Below are positions 21,847 through 41,001 of a DNA stretch of 64,000 nucleotides, in pieces (the first letter of the stretch is position 1; each line of letters opens with the position of its first letter). The notes beneath the pieces were generated by a model, which was not told the DNA's origin, ran no database searches, and saw nothing but the letters and a program-made list of their open reading frames with translations. Location of the stretch: positions 10,511 to 74,510 of the forward strand of contig JAOUJM010000001.1 in assembly GCA_029883265.1 (NCBI GenBank), in the 5' to 3' direction. The position numbers and the translations under genes were made by a program. This stretch comes from Gammaproteobacteria bacterium (GTDB lineage: Bacteria; Pseudomonadota; Gammaproteobacteria; S012-40).

Positions 21847-24800
21847 TTATTTAAACGCGTTGATAAAATATTGCATATCGTGCAAATCCACAGGGTCCAA
21901 ATAACTTTGCCATGGCAAGGGCTGTTTCGCTTCATTTACGGCCGGTACGGCAATACGAGTGCCTGCGGCTTCTGGCATTTGTCCGGGGCCAAAACGATGC
22001 CAGCCAATGTCCCTACCATAAGATACATCATTAAGTGCCATAACAGCCGCGAGTAAATTTTTTGGGACTGTACCCCATTGGTTGAGGACGGAGTCCACCA
22101 CTGGACTAGCCTGGAGTGTGCTCAATATTTCACCCGGCGTATAGAATGCGTAAACATTTTTCTTTAAGTGATTCCGATCCATTCCATAGCGCTCAATTGT
22201 ACCATCACTGAGTCCTGCCGCGTTAAAGGTAACCGCACTGGATTTCAACCTGCCAGCTTGTGCCGAAGCAATGCCGCCACCGAGGGAGTGACCGGTAAAG
22301 GTTAGTGGTGATGAGCCTAACGCTATTTGAAGATCAATTGCAAGATTGATCCCAAATTCATATTGGGTCGAATTGAAATCGGATCCTTGAGCAATACTTG
22401 CTACTGCATCTTTAACCGCTTCATGCCGGCCCAATTTCGTATCCGTTCCTCGATTGGCGAATATAAATTCGCTTGTGCGATAATTAAAATAGAGTGCGCC
22501 TTGGTAGCCACTCTTCTTATCTACAAAATTTTCAGGTTTCATATCCAGGACATCAATAAAATCCCTACCCATGCGGTAAATATCCTCAGTGACTTTCTTT
22601 GGTTCCTTTCCGGTGTATTCTTGATAAACATCGTCAGATACCATAGCGTTTTCATACCAATCAAGGCTTCCACTAAAGTCCAGTCTGATTGGAGCGGCAC
22701 TAGCAAGCTGCGAGTTATATAGCGTTCCGTTTTCATCAACTAGCTGTCCGTTCTTGAATGTGAGTATCGGTTTGGTTTCAACGGCATCGGATGATTGTCT
22801 ATAAGGAATTTTGCCTGGGGCAGAGTTTTGGACGCTTACCTGGCCATACCCATTATACGTTTTACCGCCATTACGAATAAGATTGCGACCTGGCTGGATT
22901 CCCCCAAATAGCGGCAACTCACCCAAAGCAGATTTCCAAGCATCCTCACCAGACACGCCTTTGCGAATAGACTTGGTGTAGTGTTTCTTAATCGCCTGTC
23001 TTTGTCGGTGGTCGTTTATTTTCAACTCATCAAGTTTGTTATCAAACTTTTTGGTCGACTGCTCAGCACTAATATATCCCGACGCAGCACTACTTAGTGC
23101 CTCAACAGCAACCGTCCGCCAGTCCGGCCGGTAGTCTTTCAGAGTCATGGAGTTAACGGCTATGCGGCCAACTCCAGTTAACGCACCACGTATCGCATCG
23201 CCTGCAACACCCGCGAAACCCCATCCATCAACTTTCCCAACGTTGCTTGGTAATGAAGATGTGACTCCACCCACTAATGCGCCAACCGCTACATTCGCGA
23301 ACAGATTTCCTGCTTGGCTATTGTATTTTTTACGCTGCTCAGTTGACTCCATGGCCATCGATAAGCCAGTCGATATAAGTGCTCGTCCCGCACCTTGTAG
23401 TGCACCCTTAACAACCCCTCCTCCTGTCTGATTCAATCCAGGTATTTGTGATATGATCGCGGCGATTGTCATTGATTTAACAATTTCTTCCTCGTCAATT
23501 TCATCGATGTAACCAACATTCTTCATGTATTTCTGTATGGCATACGAGGTCATTCCGGCAGCAATAATCGCCCCTTGCGGACCAAACACTATAAAAGCAG
23601 CAATAGATATGACAACAGAAGCAACATTCATCCAAAATATTTCAGACTTCGAGGGTTGATTCCTTGCAGGCATGCTTGGGTCCGTACTTCCAATTATCTC
23701 TCCCGGACTATAAGGTTTGAAGGTATCGGCATTGTTATGAATGTTTGTGACAACATTCGGAATGATTATGGATATTCCAGGTGTTAAATCAATATTGGTG
23801 ATATTGTTTGCGTTTGCAATCACATACCAAAGACTAGCATCTCCCCATACTTTACCTGCAATCGTTTCCAAAGTGTCACCTTGCACAACGAGGTATTCAC
23901 TGGCTGTATTCGCAGGATAGTTAGCACTAATGGCTTGATAATTTTGATCAAAGTCTGCTGAAATAACTCGATTCTTCCCTCTTTTTTCGTTATCTGCAAT
24001 CTCCTTGTTTGATAGTCGCGACTGGGCAAGTATTTGTGTATAGTCGGTTTCACCGGCACCTCGGTTGGATACTTCACCAATACCCCGTCCATTAAGATAG
24101 AAATAGCGGTTTACATCGTAATTTGTATTATCGATTTCATTACGCATAATGATTCGGCCGTCGGCATCAACCGTAAACTCAACTCGGCGCTCATATTTGG
24201 TGCCATGTAGTGGTGAGTTGGAATCATCCATTCTCATCAAGTGTCCATTTTGGTCATAATAAAGGTGAGAATACCCGTCAACAAAACCACGTGAATTTAC
24301 ATCCGACCTACCAACACTCTTTTTTGCAGAATCCCAATAGCTATAGAAATAGGAATTCCTGAAATTCTTTTGTTCCTCAATGCTCTTTACTTGATATGAG
24401 ACATTCTTTTCAGCTAGATCTAAACGATCTATTTCACGATAGGTGTAATCGTTATGAATTGTTGACTGCTCTTGCAAATATAGAAATTGATCCTCAGAAT
24501 TTTCCACTCTTTTACGATACTCAATACGAGAGATACGACTATCCAGATCATAGCTATAGTCGTATTGTTGTACAGACTGGGGTGGAATTGTGGTAACAAC
24601 AGTTTCTATATCTGGGTCATATAAATGAGAGGAGCTCGTTCGACCTAGCGCATCTAGCAAGCGCCGAGACACTAAATTTTTGTCTTCAACATTATCGACT
24701 ATTTTTCCGTGTTCAACAGTTTCTAAAATACCATTTTTTGTATATCCATATCGTTCGATCATAGTCGTATTCGCGCGAATATAGTTAACGCCAATTCGCT

Positions 24801-41001: not shown

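Follow-up and report, generated by a model that had tools for sequence, protein, structure and literature searches.

Toxins of the Rhs/YD-repeat class are known to leave the cell by the type VI, Sec, type VII or Tc routes, and the whole family of 4000-7700-residue YD-repeat giants stands without a known export route. We analysed a stretch of 64,000 nucleotides (the window) from contig JAOUJM010000001.1 of assembly GCA_029883265.1, a Gammaproteobacteria bacterium of lineage S012-40, in which a single open reading frame (ORF) encodes one such giant of 6384 amino acids near a flagellar-type gene cluster. A first-pass annotation of the letters had reported this ORF, recovered here on the minus strand with an ATG start, and had left its export route unclear; the flagellar-type cluster is now a candidate answer.

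Under the control of FliA, flagellar type III systems export the lipases YplA of Yersinia and XlpA of Xenorhabdus and the Cia proteins of Campylobacter. Lysobacter enzymogenes OH11 has no fliC, and its FliG, FliM, FliH and FliJ are not recognisable; this filament-less system depends on FliI, FlhA and FlhB to export FlgD, foreign flagellin and some toxins. Its reported substrates are a protease, a glucanase and a protein of the dehalogenase family, and the cluster was treated as the remnant of a lost flagellum (PMC7688988). Every Tle6 effector is encoded together with an ankyrin-repeat immunity protein, and the immunity protein Tli is a periplasmic lipoprotein (PMC11470151).

The giant is very probably a YD-repeat (Rhs-family) polymorphic toxin with a Tle6-type phospholipase tip, a periplasmic ankyrin lipoprotein protecting the producer. 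Its gene is likely to be controlled, as part of a regulon, by a FliA-like sigma factor whose own gene closes a compact flagellar-type cluster. More tentatively, at or slightly below even chances, the protein would be exported unfolded through the flagellar type III apparatus as a late substrate that replaces flagellin. As a whole, the explanation that joins toxin, sigma control and flagellar-type export is the one we favour, and we regard it as evenly balanced. The features on which it draws first are the following.

21847-41001 (minus strand): giant YD-repeat ORF, 6384 amino acids, ATG start
41049-41075 (minus strand): sigma-28/FliA-like promoter candidate CTGAAC-N13-CCTGGATA, beginning 74 nucleotides before the ATG of the giant
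47101-48189 (minus strand): TPR protein, 362 amino acids, with homologues adjoining giants in 12 related loci
48206-48763 (minus strand): TPR protein, 185 amino acids, with sub-threshold matches to type III secretion chaperone models
48804-49538 (minus strand): FliA/WhiG-like sigma factor, 244 amino acids, scoring 105 bits against a curated cut-off of 190
49551-64000 (minus strand): flagellar-type cluster, continuing past the end of the window

A flagellar-type cluster, its sigma factor and a shared promoter

Read away from the giant, the cluster encodes FliP, FliO, FliN, a FliM-like protein, FlgE, FlgD, a 226-residue ORF, a FliJ-like protein, FliI and FliH, followed by a 163-residue ORF, FliF, FliE, FlgC, FlgB, FlgI, FlgH, FlgA, FlgG and, at the window end, FlgF. 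The 163-residue ORF (56779-57270) occupies the fliG position between fliF and fliH and had no match to FliG or to any Pfam, NCBIfam or PDB entry. In two related loci (L015 and L050) and on a Burkholderia ubonensis plasmid this position is taken by an ORF of comparable size, and the product may be a FliG reduced to a minimum, lacking the torque domain. Searched by sequence against the PDB, the TPR proteins gave nothing specific, and the 362-residue protein is put forward tentatively as a chaperone candidate. Elsewhere in the window we found no other secretion genes, and none encoding SpvB, TcA-like, PAAR, prePAAR, VgrG, Hcp or Eag-type proteins.

Checking the neighbourhoods of related genes for secretion genes, as had been proposed with the first-pass annotation, revealed that this arrangement recurs. 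Relatives were collected by searching a single genome from each GTDB species with the conserved N-terminus of the giant (234 relatives, 80 loci kept), and 10 kb around each giant gene was viewed; upstream sequence exceeded 5 kb at 64 loci. As in the window, 16 of these 64 loci have the cluster immediately upstream of the giant, with its gene order unchanged. The 16 loci span alpha-, beta- and gammaproteobacteria, including Steroidobacter, Burkholderiales, Caulobacter, Rhizobium, Acidovorax and Massilia among others; among the fetched loci, 12 have a homologue of the sigma factor and 12 have one of the 362-residue TPR protein. Upstream ORF clustering found no further upstream gene family recurring across the 64 loci; the sizes of these ORF clusters are underestimates because high-G+C loci yield spurious long ORFs. 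At one locus (L025) the far end of the cluster (FliQ-FliR-FlhB-FlhA-FlgF and onwards) abuts a divergent giant gene, and the combined loci delimit a stretch of some 22 kb with FliQ at one end and the sigma factor at the other.

Mobile replicons carry the same block. An insertion sequence (IS)-flanked island on a conjugative plasmid of B. ubonensis runs from FliQ to FliP and on through the sigma factor, a TPR gene, a small hypothetical gene, a second TPR gene, a 4897-residue giant and a small ORF, with no flagellin, FlgK/L, FliD, MotAB or FliG annotated between FliQ and the giant. On the Ralstonia solanacearum megaplasmid the same genes appear as "_1" duplicates followed by a 4442-residue giant, and IS elements have rearranged the block. 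A Lysobacteraceae metagenome-assembled genome (MAG) has the order FlgD-FlgE-x-FliN-x-FliP-sigma-giant. Across 72,556 plasmid records the sigma factor (E<=1e-20) was detected in eight, all eight of which were among the 14 records that carry the giant N-terminus.

Genes for flagellin, hook junction, cap, stator and FliG were also absent at both cluster ends of the related loci, although such genes may lie elsewhere in these genomes. The presence of hook, hook-cap and hook-length genes together with the lack of junction, cap and filament genes fits a variant of the favoured explanation, in which the giant is exported but held at the hook tip as a contact-dependent toxin fibre in place of the filament. 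Propellers and carbohydrate-binding-like modules in the giant would suit surface binding, whereas Pfam scans of its N- and C-terminal segments showed no flagellar axial-protein termini; we know of no direct support for the variant and consider it improbable.

The second link to the cluster is the promoter. Alignment of the 200 nucleotides before the start codons of the giants yielded a motif, CT[AG]AAC-N12-17-(GGAT[AGT] or CCGA[TC]), present in 53 of 85 distinct upstream regions as compared to 0.9% of random 200-nucleotide windows of the same loci; a looser form was present in 66 of the 85 and in 2.3% of the random windows. The sigma-28 consensus is TAAA-N15-GCCGATAA, the motif has the same spacing, and its alphaproteobacterial copies read TAAA-N15-GCCGAT. 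In the window, the promoter candidate of the giant is the sole intergenic match on the same strand. The motif also precedes giants without an adjoining cluster, such as the gene of Eleftheria terrae, and membership of a common regulon is therefore favoured over chance adjacency.

Other motif observations stand apart from this link. A second perfect copy (CTAAAC-N14-GTGGATG, 32061-32088) lies on the coding strand inside the giant ORF, either by chance or as an internal promoter, and GMCGATAA has six sites against 3.6 expected, which is not an enrichment. As a -10 element, GACGATAA at 41032 was considered and dropped in favour of the family-wide CTAAAC-N15-GGATA motif.

In the window the giant and the TPR gene are separated by an insertion of about 5.9 kb, bracketed by two copies of the end of that gene:

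41065-41545 (minus strand): duplicate of the 3' end of the 362-residue TPR gene and its downstream spacer, 99% identical to 46980-47460

The insert (41546-46979) encodes a 491-residue secreted protein resembling outer-membrane proteins, a 310-residue lipoprotein and a 424-residue lipoprotein with DUF6973 and a weak Wnt-family match, which corresponds to the Lipocone superfamily (PMC12419801). These genes were considered as parts of the system and dropped, having no counterpart in related loci.

Architecture of the giant and its family

Pfam and NCBIfam profile scans of eight overlapping segments, together with motif searches and structure models, gave the following layout of the giant, from its N-terminus to the last segment before the tip.

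40672-41001 (minus strand): family-wide conserved N-terminus including DUF6531 (residues 40-95), MVAIxxGxGLGL...VYVNxxTGNLVxQxxDE...RTYNS...DDNGDNWR, non-hydrophobic
39985-40671 (minus strand): first YD repeats, residues 111-339, common to homologues without propellers
38617-39984 (minus strand): beta-propeller 1, residues 340-795, blades of about 55 residues, predicted by AlphaFold2
37252-38616 (minus strand): beta-propeller 2, residues 796-1250, internal duplicate of propeller 1
37087-37239 (minus strand): weak LysM-like segment, residues 1255-1305, weak profile match
24265-37086 (minus strand): YD-repeat body, residues 1306-5579 (about 4200 residues with inserts), RHS_repeat/YD_repeat matches
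34993-35226 (minus strand): CBM60-like insert, residues 1926-2003, sub-threshold in Pfam
25561-25875 (minus strand): two LysM domains, residues 5043-5147, strong, with copies at residues 5043 and 5098
23047-24264 (minus strand): conserved pre-toxin module, residues 5580-5985, with the last YD repeats, a degenerate core-like motif, SADFDQNY, LysM, PNxVTNIHNN..F.PY.PG and a hydrophobic helical region
23746-23895 (minus strand): LysM in the pre-toxin module, residues 5703-5752, profile match
23536-23649 (minus strand): hydrophobic helical hairpin, residues 5785-5822, the sole transmembrane-like stretch in the giant

The ORF is genuine and not a chimera, because it is without long DNA repeats, because a 2195-residue fragment from an independent Gammaproteobacteria MAG record (locus tag OEZ58_12170) is 100% identical to residues 354-2548, and because collinear homologues of 4400-7700 residues are present in isolate genomes. 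An assembly error, which the first-pass annotation had named as a possible source of a chimeric ORF, was thus not borne out. G+C content does vary from 0.37 to 0.45 along the ORF, and related genes are broken into two or three ORFs in several metagenome assemblies, as might be expected if assembly or annotation had joined unrelated pieces; set against the identical fragment and the collinear homologues of similar size in isolates and on plasmids, such an artefact has a negligible probability.

The absence of a signal peptide and of PAAR, VENN and haemagglutinin domains, noted at first pass, agreed with the profile scans of the eight segments and with the hydropathy of the N-terminus (maximum 0.61). 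What had been missed is the N-terminal DUF6531 and the strong conservation of the first 110 residues or so, which we propose as an export-signal candidate. Nor did the NCBIfam scan of the segments contain the TIGR03696 RHS-associated core; DPxG[LIVM] sites occur only at residues 2657 and 3331, consistent with the earlier failure to find DPxGL near the tip. The giant thus lacks the canonical RHS core while keeping polymorphic-toxin logic.

These absences bear on whether the giant is an ordinary type VI Rhs effector with PAAR/VgrG partners beyond the window. Its closest solved YD relatives are indeed type VI secretion system (T6SS) Rhs proteins, Tse5 and Salmonella Rhs, matched weakly (E 4e-4 to 4e-3), and the Tle6 family of its tip was defined in T6SS effectors (PMC11470151). 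However, PAAR, prePAAR, VgrG, Hcp and Eag-type genes are neither present in the window nor recurrent in the 64 neighbourhoods, there is no RHS core or DPxGL, and the conserved N-terminus begins at Met-1 without PAAR. We consider this origin very unlikely.

The tryptophan-rich region of about 900 residues, initially suspected from Asp-box/BNR-like motifs to form beta-propellers, resolved into two tandem units (residues ~340-795 and ~796-1250) and the suspicion held at the fold level. Unit 1 was modelled by AlphaFold2 as all-beta, with about 32 strands (pLDDT 75, pTM 0.80), from an alignment limited to 10 rows since a word-indexed homology search with the propeller region missed even the identical P0001. 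Its best PDB matches were bacterial sialidases, Photorhabdus propeller lectins and the prolyl-oligopeptidase propeller (E 1e-9 to 1e-7, TM score ~0.4-0.5), while a sequence search of the PDB with the propellers gave nothing specific. Most homologues skip from residue ~333 directly to residue ~1300 of the giant; the propellers are therefore an optional insert, which only a minority of members have.

TcB carries a beta-propeller inserted after the first part of its YD shell, and the similar position of the propellers here would fit a fused TcB-TcC-like cocoon of an insecticidal Tc toxin that needs a TcA translocator. Yet neither SpvB nor TcA-like genes were found in the window or related loci, there is no aspartyl-protease core, most family members lack the propellers, and the periplasmic immunity gene points to bacterial targets; only a slight chance is left to this origin.

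Matches to the RHS/YD repeat models PF05593 and TIGR01643 occur in all eight segments, and 54 YDxxG motifs run from residue 217 to 5582 with inserted domains between them, so that the YD repeats reported at first pass are borne out. Non-YD inserts lie at about residues 1918-2141, 2667-2803, 3033-3219, 3842-4105, 4369-4788 and 4955-5173. Four or more LysM domains had been placed after the repeats: their presence stands, with five copies (strong at residues 5043, 5098 and 5703, weak at 1255 and 2091), but they are scattered and not consecutive. The whole protein has no cysteine in 6384 residues and is acidic (825 D+E against 548 K+R).

The hydrophobic stretch that had been seen ahead of the tip is the helical hairpin of the pre-toxin module. 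An alignment of 179 pre-toxin segments contained, in order, the conserved blocks YYYxNGxRVGDVGNDG, SADFDQNYQPI, LysM, PNKVTNIHNNxxTFRPYNPG, a proline-rich linker and the hydrophobic helices. We take the first block to be a degenerate remnant of the RHS core motif; about 350 conserved residues follow it, and family conservation stops near residue 5980. In the AlphaFold2 model the YD hairpins and LysM were confident, the linker was disordered and the remainder was helical but weak (pLDDT 66, pTM 0.43); the helical part was too weakly modelled for a fold search on the module. Ahead of the hydrophobic helices many homologues carry GGCG, with the cysteine as a consensus residue; the giant of the window is without this motif.

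A HMMER scan of cluster representatives with residues 5560-5960 returned 2653 matches at E<=1e-3, of which 1367 reached E<=1e-10 and 179 reached E<=1e-30; among the 150 best pre-toxin matches, 57 were 4000-7695 residues long. Named examples are from Duganella (6398 residues), Chitinimonas arctica (7695), Microbulbifer (7273 and 7492) and Andreprevotia lacus (7105), labelled in databases only as LysM or YD-repeat proteins. Nearly all members begin MVAIVSGNGLGL... and are conserved from Met-1 over the first ~110 residues, and those of 4000-7700 residues have 0-13 cysteines. The same frame carries other tips: a non-specific endonuclease (P0035), a deaminase (P0049), RES (L004) and, in named members, PT-HINT or 'type 22'. 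The giant had been described as an Rhs-type toxin of unusual architecture. Its non-canonical build was borne out, while the architecture itself is the norm of a large and widespread family and not singular. This family is present in databases but unnamed and unstudied, and our literature searches turned up no paper that links flagellar clusters with Rhs/YD giants.

Several genomes carry more than one member. Steroidobacter flavus (L004/L017/L020 and L008/L016) has five or more giant genes, among them tandem copies spaced 19 kb apart, and by coordinates two of the genes appear to lie one on either side of the flagellar-type cluster; in Massilia sp. YIM B04103 there are four or more. A 24.7-kb member encoding 8221 residues (L086) lies at 58823-83488 on the 135-kb plasmid pUKW01 of Undibacterium sp. 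KW1; no flagellar gene lies closer than 20 kb, and its upstream region has no match to the promoter motif.

Toxin tip, immunity candidate and downstream array

The tip, which the first-pass annotation had left unnamed, corresponds to a Tle6-type phospholipase with an ankyrin-repeat immunity gene adjoining it. Further ORFs resembling toxin tips and immunity genes follow downstream.

21850-22704 (minus strand): Tle6-type phospholipase tip, residues ~6100-6384, GHSLG at residue 6237
21095-21823 (minus strand): ankyrin-repeat protein, Tli-like immunity candidate, with Ank repeats and an N-terminal signal/lipobox-like sequence
1-18817 (minus strand): array of small toxin-tip/immunity-like ORFs, TNT, LHH nuclease, nucleotidyltransferase and others, broken by IS66 copies
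17834-18817 (minus strand): TNT-toxin ORF of the array
16268-16756 (minus strand): HExxH-like ORF of the array
12987-13433 (minus strand): LHH nuclease ORF of the array
12024-12419 (minus strand): nucleotidyltransferase ORF of the array

The last ~300 residues matched PDB 7UBZ_B, a 'T6SS lipase effector' of Enterobacter cloacae, across the nucleophile elbow (phmmer E 5e-11); the alignment spans the serine elbow only (GHSLGGG), not the catalytic acid or histidine. A Pfam scan gave a weak lipase/thioesterase match around the GHSLG at residue 6237. A lipase-tipped homologue of 1564 residues (P0036, locus L001) is a short version of the giant: the N-terminus, LysM-hydrophobic module and lipase are shared, the YD body is short, and the protein carries PF26363 (Phospholipase-like). 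The ankyrin-repeat gene that follows it is 29% identical (E 1e-11) to the ankyrin ORF of the window. By these similarities, tip and ankyrin ORF appear to be a toxin-immunity pair aimed at a periplasm.

A tblastn search of the giant against the rest of the window gave no match. The downstream tips share no sequence with the pre-toxin region of the giant and cannot, for that reason, be called its spare cassettes. Two IS66-family copies (orf1, orf2 and transposase) lie at 6931-9185 and 18817-21044, the second directly upstream of the TNT ORF, whose 5' part it may have removed. IS66-type elements also border the homologous islands on the Ralstonia and B. ubonensis plasmids.

Proposed export through a filament-less apparatus and comparison with known systems

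If the favoured explanation holds, the cluster would supply the export gate, ATPase, rings, rod and hook, with no filament, hook-junction, cap, stator or recognisable FliG. Once the hook is completed, the apparatus would switch to late substrates and the FliA-like sigma factor would drive the giant gene. The giant would leave unfolded and N-terminus first, with the conserved non-hydrophobic N-terminus as its signal and the neighbouring TPR proteins as its chaperones, and would fold outside the cell. On a target, the LysM domains and hydrophobic helices may bind peptidoglycan and insert in the membrane, placing the tip in the periplasm or membrane. Flagellar-type export is favoured because there is no Sec signal, the N-terminus is conserved from Met-1, cysteines are few across the family and the TPR proteins have matches, albeit sub-threshold, to chaperone models.

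A number of points weigh against this explanation. Flagellar genes are lacking within 10 kb of the giant in 48 of the 64 loci. The promoter candidate of the window has one mismatch in its -35 element, and the canonical TAAA-N14-16-GCCGATAA was not found in the window. The chaperone-model matches of the TPR proteins stand among generic TPR matches. Synteny and a shared promoter would indicate co-regulation at most. A beta-rich protein of 6384 residues would have to stay unfolded before a narrow channel, and we know of no flagellar substrate of this size. The lipase is expected to act in the target periplasm because the immunity protein is periplasmic, which puts the target outer membrane in its way, and to our knowledge a hook-basal body has no means to cross that barrier. 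Finally, the Lysobacter papers report other substrates and make no mention of giant YD proteins (PMC7688988, PMC9927559).

Several of these points would suit a giant that is co-regulated by the FliA-like sigma factor and nothing more, leaving the cell by lysis, in vesicles or through an unlinked secretion system, or staying anchored by LysM on the wall of its producer. The evidence for a link to the cluster is genetic only, most loci have no adjoining cluster, size and beta-rich fold suit type III export poorly, and the five LysM or LysM-like domains could bind the producer's own peptidoglycan. Against this, no other secretion genes recur beside the giants or occur in the window, the cluster is without a late substrate of its own, and among plasmid records the sigma factor is found only where giants are, with cluster and giant sharing one plasmid island. 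We consider co-regulation without flagellar export unlikely, while giving it real weight.

Returning to flagellar-type export, a broader reading, which we hold only tentatively and at a little under even chances, is that the mobile, filament-less and stator-less apparatus without recognisable FliG is a dedicated secretion system for giant YD toxins, with its own sigma factor and TPR chaperones, distributed over alpha-, beta- and gammaproteobacteria. It would then be a previously unrecognised means of toxin delivery and a living intermediate between flagellum and injectisome. Synteny, a private sigma factor and a shared promoter tie the giants to an apparatus so far read as a decaying flagellum; if this tie is functional, it would offer a new secretion route for polymorphic toxins and a tractable case of a flagellum turned weapon. 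Culturable carriers include Burkholderia ubonensis, Ralstonia solanacearum, Caulobacter vibrioides T5M6 and Steroidobacter flavus. The family also shows that a polymorphic YD toxin can do without the DPxGL core, and one may then ask whether its tip is released at all, and by what means.

With known Rhs/YD toxins (Tse5, RhsA, WapA, TcB-TcC and teneurins) the giant has in common the YD repeats, a DUF6531-type N-terminal segment, a variable C-terminal toxin, an adjoining immunity gene and downstream toxin-tip/immunity cassettes. In contrast to them, it is four to five times longer, has neither PAAR nor a signal peptide, carries a constant LysM and hydrophobic module in place of the RHS core and its DPxGL motif for aspartyl self-cleavage, has propellers and other modules inserted in its YD body, and is genetically tied to a flagellar-type cluster instead of a T6SS. 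The Tle6/Tli pair of E. cloacae (7UBZ/9CYS; PMC11470151) shares the GHSLGGG elbow match and the adjoining ankyrin-repeat lipoprotein, but Tle6 is a T6SS effector of a few hundred residues whereas the lipase here is the tip of a 6384-residue YD protein.

The YplA, XlpA and Cia exports resemble the giant in their FliA-type promoter, lipase cargo and lack of a Sec signal; those are small proteins of working flagella, whereas here the apparatus lacks genes for filament and stator, and its candidate cargo has a mass of 700 kDa. In gene content the cluster resembles that of L. enzymogenes OH11, which matches in flhA, flhB, fliP, fliQ, fliR, fliI, fliF, fliN, flgC, flgG, flgH, flgI, flgD and flgE, and since OH11 exports its substrates in a FliI/FlhA/FlhB-dependent way, a working apparatus of the filament-less type is plausible. 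The Lysobacteraceae MAG joins the two, with an OH11-type cluster in which FliP is followed by the sigma factor and then the giant; a functional tie would explain why non-motile bacteria such as Lysobacter retain flagellar genes.

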